From: Carcharhinus amblyrhynchos
Lineage: Eukaryota
Direction: 5' to 3'
Assembly: GCA_965287045.1 (NCBI GenBank)
Contig: OZ336887.1
Location: forward strand, 11,780,001-11,844,000
DNA: 64,000 nt
Part shown: one piece after another, positions 14,690 to 58,879 of the stretch
Position numbering within the stretch: the stretch's first letter is position 1
How the letters are laid out: each line of letters begins with the position of its first letter
Position numbers and translations under genes: made by a program
The notes under the pieces: model-generated
Seen by the model: the letters and a program-made list of their open reading frames with translations, nothing else
Told to the model about the DNA's origin: nothing
Database searches by the model: none

Positions 14690-17180
14690 AGTCCATCACT
14701 CATGAAACTTCAGTATGCAGATGACATCATCATCTCTGCTCTCTCAGAAGGCAATCTTCAAGAACTTGCCTGATGCCTTTGCAGAAGCATGCCAAAAAAG
14801 CCTCAACCTCAAAACAGATTCAAATCCTTTACCACCTACCCTTGGGCTGGATCCAGTCTCTCCTTCCATCAAGATTAATGGAGAAACCTTTCCAAACATG
14901 GAATATTTCCCCTACCTGGGGAACCACCTCTCATCTAAGGCTGACATTGGTGTGAAAATCTAACATTTTATCCAGTCCCCGAGTAGCAAGGATCAGAGTC
15001 TTTGATGACCGCAACATCCACACTGATACCAAAGTGTACAAGACAGTCATCCTCCCAACTCTCTAAACTGCCTAGAAATTTGGACTACATACAGACACCA
15101 CCTCAAGACTCTAGAGAGGTGTCATCAATGCTGCCTGAGACAGATCCTCCACATCAGCTGGTGCAACAGGCATACTAACATCAGCATCCTTGAAGGAGTG
15201 AAGAACACCAGCATGAGGGCCATGGTCATCCAAAACCAACACCACTGGACTGGCCATGGTCATCCAAAACCAACACCACTGGACTGGCCATAGTCATCCA
15301 AAACCAACACCACTGGACTGGCCATGATCATCCAAAACCAACACCACTGGACTGGCCACGATCATCCAAAACCAACACCACTGGACTGGCCATGGTCATC
15401 CAAACCAACACCACTGGACTGGCCACGATCATCCAAAACCAACACCACTGGACTGACCATGGTCATCCAAAACCAACACCACTGGACTGGCCATGATCAT
15501 CCAAAACCAACACCACTGGACTGGCCATGGTCATCCAAAACCAACACCACTGGACTGGCCACGATCATCCAAAACCAACACCACTGGACTGGCCATGGTC
15601 ATCCAAACCAACACCACTGGACTGGCCATGATCATCCAAAACCAACACCACTGGACTGGCCATGATCATCCAAAACCAATTCCACTCGACTGGCCATGGT
15701 CATCCAAAACCAACACCACTGGACTGGCCATGGTCATCCAAAACCAACACCACTGGACTGACCATGATCATCCAAAACCAACACCACTGGACTGACCATG
15801 GTCATCCAAAACCAACACCACTGGACTGGCCATGGTCATCCAAAACCAACACCACTGGACTGACCATGATCATCCAAAACCAACACCACTGGACTGGCCA
15901 TGGTCATCCAAAACCAACACCACTGGACTGGCCATGGTCATCCAAAAGCAACACCACTGGACTGACCATGGTCATCCAAAACCAACACCACTGGACTGGC
16001 CATGATCATCCAAAACCAACACCACTGGACTGGCCATGGTCATCAAAAACCAACACCACTGGACTGGCCATGGTCATCCAAAAGCAACACCACTGGACTG
16101 GCCATGGTCATCCAAAACCAACACCACTGGACTGGCCATGGTCATCCAAAACCAACACCACTGGACTGGCCATGATCATCCAAAACCAACACCACTGGAC
16201 TGGCCATGGTCATCCAAAACCAACACCACTGGACTGGCCATGGTCATCCAAAACCAACACCACTGGACTGGCCATGGTCATCCAAAACCAACACCACTGG
16301 ACTGGCCATGGTCATCCAAAACCAACACCACTCGACTGGTCATGGTCATCCAAAACCAACACCACTGGACTGGCCATGGTCATCCAAAACCAATTCCACT
16401 CGACTGGCCATGGTCATCCAAAACCAACACCACTGGACTGGCCATGGTCATCCAAAACCAACACCACTGGACTGACCATGGTCATCCAAAACCAACACCA
16501 CTGGACTGGCCATGGTCATCCAAAACCAACACCACTGGACTGACCATGGTCATCCAAAACCAACACCACTGGACTGGCCATGGTCATCCAAACCAACACC
16601 ACTGGACTGACCATGGTCATCCAAACCAACACCACTGGACTGACCATGGTCATCAAAAACCAACACCACTGGACTGGCCATGATCATCCAAAACCAACAC
16701 CACTGGACTGGCCATGGTCATCCAAAACCAACACCACTGGACTGGCCATGATCATCCAAAACCAACACCACTGGACTGGCCATGATCATCCAAAACCAAT
16801 TCCACTCGACTGGCCATGTGCTTGAGATATCAGAGTCCCAACAAATCTTTTCCACCCAACTCAATAAGGCTCCCGAACAAAGAAGCACTTCAAAGACATT
16901 CTGAAGGCTTACCTCAAAAAATGCAATATAGACATAAGGCCAGGGAGACGCTTGTTCAGAAAAAAACCTACCTGGAGGAACCTCCTGATTGAAGGGACAC
17001 AATTCTTTGAGAACAACAGACAATAAGAGAAAGCCTGGAAAAGGAGTCTGAGAAAGGAACCCCAGCGACCTTGAGTCCAAGGACTGAACCCACCGCCCCA
17101 GAAACACCTGCCAGGTGCACGGTTGGAGATGTGGCTCTGGGATTGGCTCATCAGCCACACAAGGACCCACAGAACCCATG
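14690..17180 (+). mobile_element. Degenerate RTE-clade LINE (RT C-terminal half and terminal Zn-finger-like region), interrupted by the 34-bp minisatellite
   Basis: Fragments: LQYADD; INGETFPNMEYFPYLGNHLSSKADI; RVFDDRNIHTDTKVYKTVILPTL; WTTYRHHLKTLERCHQCCLRQILHISW. After the array: WRNLLIEGTQFFE and CGSGIG..SHTRTH. Multiple stops and frameshifts. Confidence 0.8.
15218..16818. repeat. 34-bp minisatellite, 47 units (GGCCATGGTCATCCAAAACCAACACCACTGGACT)
   Basis: GGCCATG at 15218 and at 16812 are 1594 nt apart, which equals 47x34 minus four single-A deletions seen in the array. Confidence 0.95.
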
Positions 17181-30985: not shown

Positions 30986-31128
30986 TACAGGGAGTTTAGG
31001 AACAACCTCAAGGGGCCAACAATGATCCCAACAATGATTTATTGAGGGGAAAAGGCAGTGGAAACACAGCTAACTGTATTTGTCAATTGGTTACACACAG
31101 TAAGAGTTTGTGTGCATTTAAAAAAAGG

Positions 31129-31342
31129 AGGATAAACCCCATCAGGGACAGGGAAAAGCAGGATAAACCCCATCAGGGACAGGGAAAAGCAGGATAAACC
31201 CCATCAGGGACAGGGAAAAGCAGGATAAACCCCATCAGGGACAGGGAAAAGCAGGATAAACCCCATCAGGGACAGGGAAAAGCAGGATAAACCCCATCAG
31301 GGACAGGAAAACGTAGGATAAACCCCGTCAGGGACAGGAAAG
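31129..31342. repeat. 31-bp minisatellite, ~7 copies (AGGATAAACCCCATCAGGGACAGGGAAAAGC)
   Basis: Units start at 31129, 31160, 31191, 31222, 31253, 31284 and 31315. The first five are identical and the last two are slightly diverged. Confidence 0.95.
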
Positions 31343-31646: not shown

Positions 31647-32466
31647 ATGCCAGCCAACGACCCCAGTAACAGTCTGCAGATCCAGTTTGGGCTCATCAAC
31701 TGCGGGAAGAAGTACCTGACGGCTGAAGCCTTTGGCTTCAAGATCAACGCCTCGGCGACCAGCATGAAGAAGAAGCAGATCTGGACCCTGGAGCAGAACG
31801 GCGAGGATTCCAATGTGGTCTTCTTCAAGAGCCACCTGGGCCGGTACCTGGCGGCGGATAAGGACGGCAATGTGTGGTGTGAGAGTGAGGAGCCGACCGC
31901 CGACTGCAGGTTCCTCATCGTGGCTCACGATGACGGCCGCTGGTCGCTGCAGTCCGAGCCCCACAAGCGCTACTTTGGCGGCACCGAGGACCGGCTGACC
32001 TGCTTCGCCCAGACCATCTCGGTGGCCGAGAAGTGGAGCGTCCACATCGCCATGCACCCGCAGGCCAACATCTTCAGCGTGACCAGGAAGCGGTACGCCC
32101 ACCTGAGCGCCAAGGACGAGCTGGCCATTGACCGCGACACCCCCTGGGGAGTGGACTCCCTTATCACGCTGGTCTTCCAGGACCAGAAGTACAGTATCCA
32201 GAGCAGCGACAACCGCTTCCTCCGCAACGACGGGCAGCTGGTGGAGAAACCCGACCGCAGCACCGGCTACACCCTGGAGTTCAGGTCGGGCAAGGTGGCC
32301 TTCAGGGACTGCGAAGGCAAATACCTGGCACCCTCCGGCCCCACTGGCACCATGAAGGCTGGCAAGAGCAGCAAGGTGGGCAAGGATGAACTCTTTGTCC
32401 TGGAGCAAAGCCACCCACAGGTGGTCCTCAAGGCTGCCAATGGCAGGAATGTCTCCATCCGGCAAG
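31647..32466 (+). CDS. FSCN1: Fascin-1 (actin-bundling protein), coding exon 1 (820 nt, ends in phase 1)
   Basis: [49 protein letters not shown]...RNVSIRQG matches the fascin-1 N-terminus ([21 protein letters not shown]) better than fascin-2. Kozak context GCAGCCATGC; donor CAAG|GTAAGG at 32466/32467. Confidence 0.97.
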
Positions 32467-47135: not shown

Positions 47136-47292
47136 GAATGGACCTGTCTGCGAACCAGGATGAAGAAAGTGACCAGGAGACTTTCCAATTAGAAATCAAC
47201 AAAGAGACCAAAAAGTGTGCTTTCCGAACCTGCACTGGGAAATACTGGACTCTGACATCTAATGGAGGGGTGCAGTCAACTGCCTCGACAAA
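47136..47292 (+). CDS. FSCN1: Fascin-1 coding exon 2 (157 nt)
   Basis: Acceptor AAAAG|GA ATG. Translates (G)[52 protein letters not shown]; donor AA|GTAAGT. Not in the ORF track; read manually. Frame is continuous with exons 1 and 3. Confidence 0.95.
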
Positions 47293-50417: not shown

Positions 50418-50539
50418 AAATGGTAACTGCTACTTCGACATTGAATGGCGTGCAAAAAGAATTGTTCTGAAGGCTGTCAATGGAAAATATGTGGCAGCTA
50501 AAAAGAATGGACAGCTGTGCGCCAGCATAGAAACACCAT
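50418..50539 (+). CDS. FSCN1: Fascin-1 coding exon 3 (122 nt)
   Basis: Acceptor TTTCAG|A. Translates [40 protein letters not shown]; donor T|GTAAGT. Confidence 0.95.
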
Positions 50540-51362: not shown

Positions 51363-52918
51363 CTACAAAACTTTAAAACATACAGAACCTTTATTCCAAT
51401 CTGTGTTGGAATGGTTTAAAATCATCAGTGTTATTGACCTGTGTGTACATAGCTCGGTCTGTATGCAATCAAAAAATATTGTCTGACTGCACCACGAAAG
51501 ATTCCTATACTGATAACTCTGTCAACTTCCTCCTTCCTTTCCTTACTCACTGAAAATGTTACGACTGAGAATAATTCATTTGTCTGAACTTTTTCCAGTT
51601 GTTAATTCCTGAGTCTCCGCAAAGTACTCCATTTACCTCTCAGTATTTCCCTCTTCCTTTATTCTCTAAATCTCTGCCAAAGTACATTTTATTTGTCTCT
51701 CTGAATCTCCACCTCTGTGTAACTTTTTATTAAATTTGCCTTTCTCCATTTTAACCTGCCTTCCTGGGGGCCTCAATAGCTTTATTGCTCTACACATTAT
51801 CTCATTACAAGGAGACATATGATTGTTTTCGTTGTGGTCAATGCTGTCCCCTTATTCCAGCATTCACTGTTGCAGTTTGGTGTAAAAGCACTTTACTTTG
51901 CACTACATCTTGACCATCCCAATTTTCCTCCTTCAACCTGGCTACTGCACAGCAGTAGAAACAGCTAACAGTTTTTAGCTGTTTATCCTCTTTTAAAGTA
52001 TTGCACTAAGTTGCAGATAAACTCAAAATACTTCAAGGTTTATTGAAAACTCTATTCATTCATGTTTAAAACTCAACATGAACAAAAGCTGAGTTCTTCT
52101 CCTTAGCCAGCAGATTTTGATGAGCCTGTCCCTTTCTTTTTTGACCCAGACCTCATGATGACTCTTTCTAACCTTCCATGAATTGGTGTTCCAGCATGTT
52201 GCTAATCTAGGAAGCAGTTTATTCCAGTACTTTTGCGAATCGTGAAGTAGCATAGTATTGTGAAATTCTGGGGTTTAATATCAGTAAAGAAAAATTGCTA
52301 CAGATATACCAACTTTTTCAATATTGAAAAGGTTGTGTTCTAACTCCCCAGGGAATTGGATGCTTTTCACTCTCCCTTCCATGTCTTTGCAAATCAAGAC
52401 ATTTGATCATTTTTGACAGGATAATAGAGGACTACCTTTCGTCTAGCGATTTCTACTAATCTAGGTGCCTTGTGCTGGCAATGAACAACTTTTGAAGAGT
52501 TATGAATCAAAATTGATTGCTACTGCAGGTTTTCTCATCTGCTAAACTTAATGTTTTTGAGCCATGTGTTGATCCTGAATAACTGTTTTAGTTCAAATAC
52601 CCCGTGCAGGTAAACCAAAAGTTTGTTTCCTTCGCTTTCTGTTGGTGTTTTCCATGCCATTCAGGAAGTGATTCTATAATTCTGTGTAACTGAATCCAGT
52701 TAGATTTTTCCACCCCCTGAGGTTTCAAACAACTGTGGGACTAAAATTACGCATCGTTTTCTCTTCCTGCTCTACTCCCAGGTTTTTCTCCTTCCCTGAA
52801 TATGTTGACCCATTATGGTGTGTGTATTTAAAGAATAGGTGCTCTCCTGATGCCTCTTAATGAAGTGACCATTCTTCCAAATTGCAGAAACATTCACCTG
52901 TTCCTTTTCATTCTCCAG

Positions 52919-53086
52919 CTGAGTCCGAAGAATTTGTAATGAAACTGATTAACAGGCCTATTATAGCCCTTCGAGGAGAGCATGGCTTTATTGGATGTCG
53001 GAAAGTGACTGGAACCTTAGACTCAAACAGATCCTCATACGATGTCTTCCAGTTAGAGCTCAATGATGGTGCTTACAGACTGAAAG
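52919..53086 (+). CDS. FSCN1: Fascin-1 coding exon 4 (168 nt)
   Basis: Acceptor TTCTCCAG|CT. Translates [56 protein letters not shown]; donor G|GTAAAT. Confidence 0.95.
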
Positions 53087-53439
53087 GTAAATGATCCAAC
53101 TTGTGTTTTTCCTTTGCAACTTCCTCTCCTGAAGGAATAAATTCCTGTAGAACATAGTTTCTTGAACATTGGAATCTCATCCCTGTTTTTCAAGTTTGAC
53201 TCTGGGTAGTTAGTGTATGTAGATGGACTAATTGCTTTGCCATGAAAGGCCTTACAGTTGAATCCACTCCTGTTCTTCATTGGCAGCCATGTTTGTGCAT
53301 GTCACAACAAGAATGACTGACAGCAGAGTAACAAAACTGTTTTTATTCCCTCTGACCACTCCCCCACACTCCAGTTTCTGTAGCGCACGCACCAATATTC
53401 TCCATCACGTGGTGGTGGATCAAATCTATACCATTTTTG

Positions 53440-53640
53440 AAACAAAAACAGAATGCTGGTGAACCTCAGCAAGTCTGACAGCATCTGTAGACAGAGAATA
53501 GAGCCAATGTTTCAAGTCCAGATGACCCTTTGTCATGAATAGCCATCCAGACTCTGTTAGCTTGATTCTCTCTCCACAGATGCTGTCAGACTGGCTGAGA
53601 TTTTCCACTTCTGTTTCAGATTACTGCTGATTTGCTTTTA
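53440..53640. repeat. Inverted pair of Penelope-like termini (fold-back) in intron 4; related copies at ~9120-9220 and ~56770-57180
   Basis: Arms 53465-53499 and 53565-53599 are complementary at 32/35 positions. Confidence 0.7.
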
Positions 53641-54045
53641 TCTATGCCTGTATCAGATTGTGTTTTAGCTCATGGTATCAGATTTGAGCAGGAAAACTCA
53701 ATTGAGCCATTTTGAACTTGAAATTGAAGCTGTTTGAACCCGTTTGCTACTCAGTCACATGAGTTAACCTTTGAGCTTCAGCCAGTTGACTGATTTTTTT
53801 TTTCCCCTTTTGGAAATGAATGGCCTGCCTTACTACTGTTCACCTGGGTCATGTATTTTTTATGAATATAAAGAGCCAGGGGCCAAACCAAATAGCACGT
53901 GATTGCTACCATGACATGCTACAATAATTGCATAAATCTTTGCATCAGGAGATGGGTGTGAGACAAATGGTGTGTACATTTAGTTTTGAAAGGTTTATGC
54001 TTCTGAGTCAGGACTGGTTCTCACTGTCTTTGTATTCCTTTGCAG

Positions 54046-54248
54046 ATTCCACTGGGAAGTACTGGATGGTTGGCAGTGACTCCTCTGTCACCAGCAGCAG
54101 TGATCAGCCTGTGGATTTCCTGTTTGAGTTCTGTGATTACAACAAAGTTGCAATTAAAATTGATGGGAAGTATTTGAAGGGGGATCATGCAGGTGTGCTG
54201 AAGGCATCTGCTGATAGCATTGACTCCTCAACCCTCTGGGAGTATTGA
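54046..54248 (+). CDS. FSCN1: Fascin-1 coding exon 5 (203 nt to TGA stop)
   Basis: Acceptor TTTGCAG|AT. Translates [67 protein letters not shown], the fascin C-terminus. Spliced total is 1470 nt = 489 aa + stop. Confidence 0.96.
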
Positions 54249-56320
54249 ATGCACTTTATGTATAAATGTGGCTTTCCAGCATTTTGTTTTTTTGCAGTAG
54301 TCCTACCATGGGTTGCAATGCCTGCCTGCCTTTCACTACATATCACAACAATTTTTTAAGCAGATTTTCTATATTCATCTTGACGATAGTTATTAGTGAA
54401 AGAGGTGATCTCTCTAAGTCTGTGCAGGCTGTATAATTCAATATCACGTGACATTCCTTTCAGCATTCCATTTTTTTTGTTAGGTTTTCTTGGATATCTT
54501 TTTAACTTTGGTAATGCCAAAGTTATAGTTACAACTTGCTTCATGTGCCTCAGGCCATGGATTGCAACTGCTATACTAACCGCTGCTCTGATATTGTTAG
54601 CCATGTTCACAAGTGCTTTGGTCTTGCCGGGCTGGGTGTTTGGTCATTTGTGCCCTCTTGTGATGGGAGGGGAGGGCGCAACTGATGAGGGGAGCTCTTT
54701 GTGCTGACTCGATACCAGATCCCAGTGGCCACTGAAAGCCAATCCTCTTCAGCAGAAGGCAGTTTAGCTCATGTGGACTTGAGCATAAACTGCACACTCG
54801 TCATCCCAAAGGATTGAGCAGTTTCCCTGCCTGTAGTATTTAAAGCTTCACTTCATTCTCGCACTGAACAAAACACAAGTCACCAGAACTCTAGTTTCCA
54901 TTGTAACTGAAGATGTTGGTGTCGGAACTATATCCAATGGTTCTAGGAATCTTTAGAAAAAAGAACAAAACTGGTACAAGAGAGAGGTATAGGGATTTGT
55001 AGAGCATTACATCTCCCAAAATAAAACCGTATGGATGTGGAATGACATAAGCTGGCCTTGTGTGTTCATTCCTTTTTGTTTATCCAATCTGTAGTTCAGC
55101 AAGTTGCTTTTGTTGTTATGAGCTGTCCTTTGGAAAGTGCATTCAGTGTGTTGATGACTTTCTATCTCACTGGAGACACAAGATAATAAGTCACTGCTTT
55201 TTATTTTTGCTATACGTTTGTGTATTAAAAGTTGGAAGAGACACCATCAGATAGGATCCATATATTCCTTGTCAGTTAATGCCCTGCAATTGCAAAACAA
55301 TATTTCATAACTGCTCAGATTGGGTAATCCTGAAACACTGGACACAGCCATCTAACCTGTTGCTGGCACTGGAGATGGGGATATAGTCTCATTTACTCTT
55401 CCCCAATGATCCAGTGGTTACTGGAATTCTTAGTATTTTTTTTTGTACTGGGGTTATTTCTGGAATGTTTAAAGCCTTAATTCTTCTAGAACTGGAAAAC
55501 CAGGAACCTTCCCTCCTACCTAAATTCCAATGTGCCAATATAACAGACTAAACTGGATACCCCAAAGTGAATTGCTAACAATCCAATCAGGTGGGTCCTC
55601 TGAAAAACTGGAACAGTCATCTTTGCAAAATGCCTTTCTGGATGGACTATATTTGTTTAAAAAAAATTGGAACTTTAAGGCAGCTTTTTAAAAAAAAATT
55701 CATGCATTTGCTAGTTCTGAGTGAAAGATGGACAGGCATTTAGAATATAAACTACTTTTAGTGGTCCATGGTAGGGTCTCTTAATGCAGTTCTGCAATCA
55801 CTGAGCAATGTACTTTATGAAAATGCATGTGGTCTTGTAACTTGTTGTGGAGGGAAATAATTGCCAAAACCCACATCTTCATGTGGAACCTCTTGAGTAT
55901 TGTCCAAGGAGCAGATTCATTTGGTGTGAGGGGACAACAGAGGTCAACTCACACCTTCCAGTTTATGGTTTCTTCATCCAAAACATACTGAATTTTTACA
56001 AGCATGGTCCAAAAAGTAATGAGATTTATTTTTAAGTGTTGGTTACACTGTACTGTGCATAAAATTCAAACATTGCTTGATCCAAAATTCTGCTTCTGTG
56101 TCAAGACACCTTCAAATGTTCTCAAAGGTCAGGATAATGGTCAATGCTCAGTTATCAGGACATTGAAAAATGGTGCCAGCTTAAAGGTTTCACCTCACAA
56201 ATGTTGAATTATTCCACCCAAATGTATCTTGTAGAAGTAACACTGTATTCCACTTTATTTTGAATCTCTTTTCTTCTTTTTTGTACATGTCATTTGTGTA
56301 ACTTGAGGAATGTCATGTCA

Positions 56321-56326
56321 AATAAA
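56321..56326 (+). terminator. Probable FSCN1 polyadenylation signal AATAAA (alternative proximal AATAAA at 55020-55025)
   Basis: AATAAA follows a U-rich stretch and TTTTTTGTACATGTCATTTGTGTAACT, at the end of ~2.1 kb with no recognisable repeats. A SINE starts ~155 nt downstream. Confidence 0.65.
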
Positions 56327-56480
56327 ACAAATGTTGCATATGCCAAAAACCACAACTGTGTTAATCACCAGAGGGTGTTTTCTGACTTGTGCCAAATTAA
56401 TAATTTTGACAAGAGACAACACAATTTTACAGCACACAAACTGGTCATTTGGCACAGTTGGTCTATCCCAGTGTTACTGA

Positions 56481-56768
56481 ACAGTGGTTAGCACTGCTGC
56501 CTCAGTTCAATTCTGACCTTGGATCACTGTATGGTGTCTGTATGTTCTCACCATGTCTGGATAGGTTTCCTCCAGGTGCTCCAGTTTTCTCCCACAGTCC
56601 AAAGATGTGTGGGTTAGGTTGATTGGCTGTGCTAAATTCCTCCTTGGTGTCAGGGGGTTAGTAGTGTAAATAAATAAATGGGTTATGAAGATAGGGCCTG
56701 GGTGGGATTGTGTTTGGTGCAGATGCAGTGGGCCAAATGGTGGCCTTTGCACTGTAGGGATTCCATGA
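56481..56768 (+). mobile_element. V-SINE (HE1-like), tail type A, just downstream of the putative polyA site
   Basis: ACAGTGGTTAGCACTGCTGCCTC head (internally deleted), V domain, tail A. Confidence 0.8.
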
Positions 56769-58879
56769 GCACAAAGGAATAAAAACACAACACTGGAAAA
56801 TAAACTCCAGTCTGGCAGCATCTGTCAAGAGAGAAACTAGAGTTCTGAGTCAGTTGAGTATCATTTGGTTCTACTAGCTTATCTCTGTTTCTTATCTATA
56901 TTGGGCCTGCAACTTTGAGTATTGTTTGCACTGTAGTTCACTTTGTTCATGCAAGTTGTTCAGTTTTTTTACATTTTAGTTTTCCCTCTTGGAGTTGCTG
57001 ACTCTTAGAATTATTCCACAGGCCACCCTTCACTACCTCCATCTTGTTTAAGTCTAAACTAGATAGCAGCATAAAAGCTAAAAAAGAGATGCTGGAAATC
57101 TGAAATAAAAGGAGAAAATTCCAAAGAATATTTCTCTCTCTCCACAAGTGCTGTCTGCCTTGCTGAGTTTATCCAGTATTTAGTTCTATAGAGATAGCAG
57201 TGGCCTGTTTTTAATTGTGGGGTGCATCACAATGCTGTTCCACTTTTACATTCTCTGATATTCTTTTCCAATAGGGTCCATCACCCCAACACTGACAATC
57301 CAGGATCTTGGCTTGAACCAGAATTTGAATAGTGGGTGAGGGCAGGATTGGAACTGGCTATAATGCAGCTTAATGTAGTCTCACAACCTATTGACTATCA
57401 TTCTTTACACTTGGGTGTAAAAATTCCCACTTCAGTCAGTAACATAGGGTGCAGCTGATTCTCATGCTAACCATAAACCAGGAGTATTGGATGAAGTAGA
57501 AAAAGGGTGTATAATAGATGCTAACTTGATGATAGAAGGGACAATCATCCATTATTTTAAATGGAAAAAGAGGCTGTGCAAGAGTAGATTGGCAGTTAAC
57601 AGGAAATCTAAAGGTTTTCTGTAGACTATCAATAGTAAAATGGTTGTCAGATAAACAGTGGACCAAAATCTACTGATGATGGCAGATAACTGGAAGATTG
57701 CAAATATTCACATTCAAAAAAAGTGGAGAAGGGTAAAACTGGCACCTATAAACAAGCCAACTTAATGCTGGTGCTGTGAAAGCTTTTCCTTTCATGGGAT
57801 GTGGGTGTTGCTGGCTAGACCAGCATTTATTGCCCATCCCTAATTGCCCATGTGAAGAAAGTGGTGGAAAACATTGCAGTCCTTGTGATGTAGGCTCACC
57901 CACGGTGCTGTTAGGGAGGGAGTTGTAGGATTTTGACCCAGTGACAGTGAAGCAATGGTGATAATATTTCCAAGTCAAGATGGTGTAGGGGCTTGAAAGG
58001 GAGCTTGCAGGTGGTATCTGTTGACCTTCTAGGTGGTAAAAGTAGTAGATTTGAAAGTATGCTGGATGGGTTGCTGTAATGCATCTTGTAGATGGTACAC
58101 ATTGCTGCTTTTGTGGTTCCAATCAAGCAGGATGCTTTGTCCTGGATGACATTGAGTTCCTTGAATGTTTTTGGAACTGCACTTATTCAGCAACATACTC
58201 CTGACTTGTGTCTTATAGATGATGGACAAGTTTTGGGGAGTTGGAGGTGAGTTACTTGTTACAGAATGCCCAACCCCTGACCTGTTGTAGCCACAGTAAA
58301 CATATAGGTTTAGCCCAGCCATAGTATTAAAGTTTGAGCCCAGGTAACACCCAGGATTTATTCAGGTCTTGTTGCATTTGGACTGTCAGTACCTGAGAAG
58401 TTGTGAATGGTGCTGAGCATCATGCAATTTTTTTTGTGAGCATCCCCATTTCTGACTTCAGTCACAGGATAGTGCTGCAGCTGTTCCTCAGGGTCATGTC
58501 CTAGGCATTTTAAGCTGCTTCATCAATGGCATTCCCTCCATCATGAGATGATTGACCTCCAACAACCAAAACCATCTTCCTTTGTGCCAGGTGTGACTAC
58601 AACTACTGGGAGTTTTCCCCTGCTTGTGACTCCCAGTTCTACTGGGGTTCTTAATATCATACATGGCCAACTACTGTTTTGGTTAAGGGCAGCCACTCTC
58701 ACCTCTGGAATTCCACTCTCTTGTCCATGTTTACACCAAGACTGTAATGAGGGCAGGAGCTGAGTGATCCTGGTAGCACCCAAACTGGACATCACTGAGC
58801 AGGTTAGTGCTTAGCAAGTGCTGCTTGATGGCACTGTTGCTGATTGCCCTTCCATCATTTAACTGTTGAGCAAGGTAAG

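Follow-up and report, generated by a model that had tools for sequence, protein, structure and literature searches.

The 3' UTR of a shark FSCN1 gene carries the hexamer ACTGGA seven times within 445 nt, and this hexamer is the seed match of miR-145-5p, which is the best documented among the regulators of human FSCN1. All positions below refer to the analysed stretch of 64,000 nt (the window) unless a contig is named. The cluster is likely a real and old instance of a known regulation, and the comparisons presented here suggest that the miR-145 brake on fascin-1 also works in sharks. It is probable that Argonaute loaded with miR-145 binds these sites and reduces fascin-1 in cells expressing mir-143/145.

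The FSCN1 gene and the extent of its 3' UTR

The gene and transcript features on which the analysis builds are as follows.

31647..32466, + strand: FSCN1 coding exon 1 (ATG at 31647; open reading frame with GT donor; E=4e-149 to a PDB fascin, 99% identical to a shark fascin)
47136..47292, + strand: FSCN1 coding exon 2 (AG/GT ends)
50418..50539, + strand: FSCN1 coding exon 3
52919..53086, + strand: FSCN1 coding exon 4
54046..54248, + strand: FSCN1 last coding exon, exon 5 (TGA at 54246-54248)
54249..56352, + strand: FSCN1 3' UTR, about 2.1 kb (from spliced contigs; 3' end approximate)
55020..55025, + strand: proximal AATAAA, 143 nt before site 1, read through by the contigs
56321..56326, + strand: distal AATAAA; contigs from three studies stop 19-26 nt past it, a weak hint

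Judged by its identities, exon structure and neighbourhood, the gene is FSCN1 of a shark, which bears out the assignment made in the initial annotation. The five joined exons form an open frame of 489 aa, of which 485 are identical to a Mustelus asterias protein named fascin-like. Exon 1 is nearer to fascin-1 than to fascin-2: its identity is 85-86% with the fascin 1a proteins of chimaera, skate and coelacanth, compared with 64-70% for proteins labelled fascin-2. According to the accessible text of a review, human FSCN1 also has five exons (PMC7873579). A separate fascin-2-like paralogue, 70% identical, lies on contig C21. An actin gene with a beta-type start is found about 174 kb upstream of FSCN1 in divergent orientation and another actin beside the C21 paralogue; both actin-fascin pairs are divergently oriented. 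These pairs fit the ACTB-FSCN1 and ACTG1-FSCN2 neighbourhoods of mammals.

The genome holds two more divergent fascin-like genes (G000:C3:50063780 and G000:C6:46078796; 42% and 47% identical to exon 1), the former a single open frame of 488 aa that looks intronless. On C8, actin-family genes that are almost identical and have a long second exon form clusters of about ten, at 125172725-125388596 and 93217892-93272086. A 31-bp tandem repeat with 7 copies (window 31123-31338) sits some 300 nt ahead of the FSCN1 ATG.

The stretch is contained in 20 of the 22 listed runs, from eight coded organisms. The alignments covered 7 of the 22 runs and seven of the nine organisms (all but E and F); four of these runs were compared over 52850-56800. 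In three of the four, a GT..AG joint spans the last intron between exons 4 and 5 and the same contig continues through the site cluster. The fourth run, from organism I, yielded no aligned contig and is evidence in neither direction. In organism A the spliced contig reaches 55698 and another one covers 55712-56345; those of B and D extend in one piece to 56352 and 56350. That they derive from RNA is deduced from the GT..AG joint, the records carrying no RNA label. Since spliced contigs of three organisms run through it, the cluster lies inside the transcribed 3' UTR of FSCN1, where the initial annotation had placed it.

The long contigs rule out the proximal AATAAA as the sole transcript end. 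The initial annotation had regarded transcripts ending mainly at this signal as an argument against the cluster; the contigs show that long read-through transcripts exist, whatever share of the transcripts may end at 55020. A GU/U-rich stretch follows the proximal AATAAA (window 55020-55080), ahead of the whole array. If a short isoform ended at this candidate signal, it would be without all seven sites. The long isoform likely uses the distal AATAAA at 56321 as its poly(A) signal.

Seven ACTGGA motifs and their background

The hexamer starts at 55169, 55337, 55368, 55420, 55491, 55552 and 55607, always on the sense strand of FSCN1, and does not occur elsewhere between the stop codon (54248) and 56350. 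Sites were classed as 8mer, 7mer-m8, 7mer-A1 or 6mer by the standard definitions, against the mature sequence from the shark's own mir-145 hairpin.

55168..55174, + strand: site 1, CACTGGA, miR-145 6mer and miR-199-5p 7mer-A1
55335..55342, + strand: site 2, ACACTGGA, miR-199-5p 8mer and miR-145 6mer, additional 3' pairing predicted for both microRNAs
55367..55373, + strand: site 3, CACTGGA, miR-199-5p 7mer-A1 and miR-145 6mer; miR-145 7mer-m8 in organism D
55420..55426, + strand: site 4, ACTGGAA, miR-145 7mer-A1
55490..55497, + strand: site 5, AACTGGAA, miR-145 8mer
55551..55557, + strand: site 6, AACTGGA, miR-145 7mer-m8
55606..55613, + strand: site 7, AACTGGAA, miR-145 8mer, seed pairing extending to about nt 10
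54969..54974, + strand: marginal miR-145 offset 6mer (AACTGG)
55460..55465, + strand: marginal miR-145 6mer-A1 (CTGGAA)

For miR-145 the cluster comprises two 8mers, one 7mer-m8, one 7mer-A1 and three 6mers, and every position and extension given in the initial annotation was found again. Its description as seven miR-145 sites holds for the four strong ones; the other three are better called shared with miR-199-5p. Neighbouring cores are 162, 25, 46, 65, 55 and 49 nt apart. Predicted accessibility of the sites is ordinary (19th-71st percentile), as is most 3' pairing, with 3 of 14 site-microRNA pairings below 5% of random flanks (uncorrected). The predicted duplex at site 2 reaches about -21 to -22 kcal/mol, a value equalled by 2-3% of random flanks (uncorrected). 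A site scan of the UTR revealed no miR-133 site and only 6-nt matches to miR-143.

The genome encodes one mir-145 hairpin with the exact seed (RF00675, 95.5 bits, C13:44248119-44248204) and, 2.8 kb upstream of it, mir-143, so that the microRNA genes whose presence the initial annotation had left to be confirmed are at hand.

In none of 20,000 dinucleotide shuffles of 54249-56340 did ACTGGA reach seven copies (mean 0.62, maximum 5), and the excess suspected from the start stands. The signal was weaker when 7mer and 8mer counts alone were to be matched, as happened in 24, 26 and 55 of 20,000 shuffles. ACTGGA was the top-ranked hexamer of the UTR in all four background models. As a further background, representing genomic DNA and not 3' UTRs, we used 43 stretches of the genome, five of which adjoin the window (430 kb in total, counted on both strands). 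They contained 329 ACTGGA matches, or 0.80 per 2.1 kb, so the initially assumed rate of one hexamer per 4 kb was too low; at the genomic rate the Poisson probability of seven is 2e-5. The densest 445-nt background window held three copies, none of 344 tiles of 2.1 kb had more than four cores, and none had four strong miR-145 sites. Conditional on there being seven sites, so short a span has a probability of 4.9e-4.

The cluster does not derive from a repeat: TRF reported no array here, and the only match to 55050-55750 in the 2.9-Gb genome is the segment itself. Flank similarity among the seven sites equals that of random pairs (0.26 vs 0.26), and none of the 20 repeat families shown joins them, in line with the initial view that the sites are not part of a tandem repeat. 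Elsewhere in the window, a 34-bp minisatellite with 47 copies (15218-16818), some 15 kb before the FSCN1 start codon, contains 43 CACTGGA on the + strand; this load is probably a coincidence.

Among the letters beside the cores, those specific for miR-145 are not enriched (4 of 7 sites strong, P=0.59), and the miR-199-specific C precedes three of seven cores (P=0.063). As neither class is clearly enriched, the sequence alone cannot name the microRNA, and orthology does most of that.

Six coded organisms (A, B, C, D, G and H), differing by about 1-4%, cover the cluster. None of the 39 variable places in 681 nt across these close relatives falls on one of the 42 letters of the cores, where 2.4 would be expected (P=0.078), and none among the 48 letters of the full miR-145 sites (P=0.053). 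The list of substitutions is complete for all six organisms and that of gaps for A, C, D and G. One 3-nt gap is unplaced in B (within bin 55490-55621) and another in H (within bin 55474-55496), so that the integrity of sites 5-7 in B and of site 5 in H is provisional. The initial annotation had made its reading depend on the presence of the sites in other sharks. The close relatives keep them as far as is visible, in a comparison that spans only 1-4% divergence.

These data bear on whether one hexamer could have piled up by neutral coincidence, which we consider quite unlikely. Some hexamer is at least equally over-represented in 30 of 172 background tiles, so the cluster draws its weight from the fact that ACTGGA matches the seed of miR-145, known to regulate human FSCN1; a chance accumulation would also agree with the conservation test, which is not significant at 1-4% divergence, and with the unenriched flanking letters. 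Against it stand the identity of the top hexamer, the low probabilities of count and span, which are separate tests, and the lack of core substitutions. A non-microRNA element sharing ACTGGA, be it bound by an RNA-binding protein or a DNA-level motif, or a decayed local repeat, is most unlikely. The restriction of the signal to the hexamer would suit such an element; the unrelated flanks, the single copy and the lack of a joining repeat family speak against it, as does the sense orientation of all seven cores, and we know of no protein motif that fits ACTGGA.

Overlap with miR-199-5p sites

The three cores that match miR-145 only as 6mers form canonical sites for miR-199-5p (one 8mer and two 7mer-A1), which the initial annotation had overlooked. 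The genome encodes two mir-199 hairpins, and the UTR contains overlapping canonical sites for two microRNAs that are both encoded in the genome. The pair miR-145-5p and miR-199-5p is listed with a 6-nt seed overlap (PMC9650897, Table S2, in the part available), and cooperative microRNA sites tend to be 8 to about 60 nt apart, as stated in the accessible part of PMC5101187. The shark UTR resembles these cases of seed-overlap and neighbourhood co-targeting in that its pair is on the list and most of its gaps fall within 8 to about 60 nt. It differs from the cases seen in PMC9650897 in that one site changes between the two classes among related species. FSCN1 gave no match in the available supplements of that paper.

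This arrangement raises the tentative possibility of a cassette with two inputs, in which the three 5' sites serve miR-199-5p, the four 3' sites serve miR-145, one hexamer is shared and either microRNA damps FSCN1. Such a cassette extends the miR-145 explanation and is not exclusive of a miR-145 array. It would account for the fact that every core weak for miR-145 is canonical for miR-199-5p and that the site classes are ordered along the UTR and not mixed. At least three strong miR-199 sites occur in just one of 344 background tiles, and the two mir-199 genes and the listed seed overlap point the same way, as does the fascin-2 paralogue, which has a miR-199 7mer-A1 and an 8mer 1.03-1.09 kb after its stop codon. 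However, the P value of 0.063 for three C-preceded cores given seven is not compelling, and the accessible text of the human FSCN1 review does not mention miR-199 (PMC7873579). The sites of the paralogue, moreover, are predicted from genomic DNA and lie beyond an AATAAA at +598. Among the 22 letters of the miR-199 sites, one is variable compared to 1.26 expected by chance; sites 1 and 2 have no listed change, and the change removes site 3 in organism D.

At the fascin-2 locus (C21:20503400-20511500, - strand), CACTGGAA and ACACTGGA are 58 nt apart, 1028-1092 nt after the stop codon. Their distance from the stop is similar to that of FSCN1 sites 1-3.

Organism D is the most distant relative, with 25 differences in 681 nt. 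Its substitutions G55366A and C55367A keep the core of site 3, remove the miR-199 site and create a miR-145 7mer-m8. The sole change beside a core among the relatives yields a stronger miR-145 site, and this switch favours miR-145 as the main input.

A more elaborate version appears doubtful to us: an ordered cassette of three miR-199-5p and then four miR-145 sites at cooperative spacing, in which the letter before the core switches the microRNA, use of the upstream poly(A) signal could drop the whole cassette, and the cassette is the ancestral form of the miR-145-fascin brake of human cancer cells. If true, it predicts an overlooked miR-199-5p input on FSCN1.

Age and proposed role of the miR-145-fascin link

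The claim that mammalian FSCN1 is a multi-site miR-145 target is supported by the accessible text of PMC2833258, which describes four conserved miR-145 sites in human FSCN1, two of them active in luciferase reporters (377-383 and 1140-1146), as well as one miR-133a site. The review PMC7873579, in its accessible part, lists miR-145 as a regulator of FSCN1 in many cancers. Human and shark are alike in the orthologous gene, the seed, the presence of the mir-143/145 cluster and the number of 7-8-nt sites, four in each. In contrast, the shark sites, which are predicted, are packed in 445 nt (UTR 921-1366 of about 2,100), while about 760 nt separate the two active human sites in a UTR of about 1,180 nt. 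The shark UTR also differs by its three extra sites shared between miR-145 and miR-199-5p and by the missing miR-133 site.

A metagenome scan for distant orthologues yielded two loci, a teleost fscn1a and a distant fascin-like exon (L003) that was not used. The last exon on the teleost contig is 92-96% identical to named fscn1a proteins, and the partial UTR of 1,028 nt, which contains no poly(A) signal, has one 7mer-m8 and one 6mer for miR-145. A blastn comparison of the shark UTR with this stretch and with the region downstream of fascin-2 gave only matches of 11-20 nt (best E=0.03), none over a site. One of them, a 20-nt block with 18 identical positions (window 56087-56106 and teleost L002 2713-2732, E=0.03), may be due to chance. 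The teleost sequence is compatible with ancestry of the link and is no proof of it.

From the two lineages of shark and human we infer, by parsimony, that the miR-145-FSCN1 link was already present in the jawed-vertebrate ancestor. Alternatively, the sites could be functional but convergent, gained independently by shark and human in a gene for which control by miR-145 is an advantage. We regard this as rather improbable. It would fit the different positions of the shark and the active human sites, and the partial teleost UTR, which is without a dense cluster and whose sites do not align to those of the shark. Yet the teleost contig has two cores in 1,028 nt although it ends without a poly(A) signal, and microRNA sites kept in unalignable UTRs, the general idea behind the initial annotation, are common: LncLOOM found them in 29% of 2,117 genes with shark in the species set (PMC7798263, section 9, as far as accessible). 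That method needs a conserved motif order, whereas for shark FSCN1 only the number of sites is comparable. In the readable text of the same paper FSCN1 appears only among tabulated proteomics data, and the further results of that study may cover FSCN1 with shark included. Judging from literature listings, we found no report of miR-145 regulation of fascin in sharks or fish, or of miR-199-5p acting on FSCN1, and the accessible part of PMC7018135 makes no mention of miR-145.

The cluster is likely a selected multi-site miR-145 array that would lower fascin-1 mRNA and protein in cells with mir-143/145 expression, as in human. Argonaute loaded with miR-145 would bind the four 7-8-nt sites at 55420, 55490, 55551 and 55606, and the three 6mers more weakly. 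Because the core gaps of 25, 46, 65, 55 and 49 nt are in or near the cooperative range of 8 to about 60 nt, repression may be stronger than from scattered sites. Single sites would have been gained, lost or moved since the jawed-vertebrate ancestor.

Both cytoplasmic actin genes checked carry one miR-145 8mer, 69 and 100 nt after the stop codon, where about 0.015 are expected per 500 nt. Their loci adjoin the two fascin genes.

C18:11632000-11640000, - strand: cytoplasmic actin locus with miR-145 8mer
C21:20587000-20595000, + strand: cytoplasmic actin locus with miR-145 8mer

These sites suggest a wider set of actin-cytoskeleton targets of miR-145 in the shark.

Overall, no new mechanism emerges from our results, and it is already established that microRNA sites are often deeply conserved in UTRs that have diverged. 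The shark UTR offers a short sequence in which to study cooperative sites and the switching of a site between microRNAs with overlapping seeds. So far, miR-145 control of fascin-1 has been known almost only from human cancer lines. The dense array in the shark suggests that it is a normal and old part of actin-cytoskeleton control in jawed vertebrates, with which the 8mers behind the actin stop codons agree.
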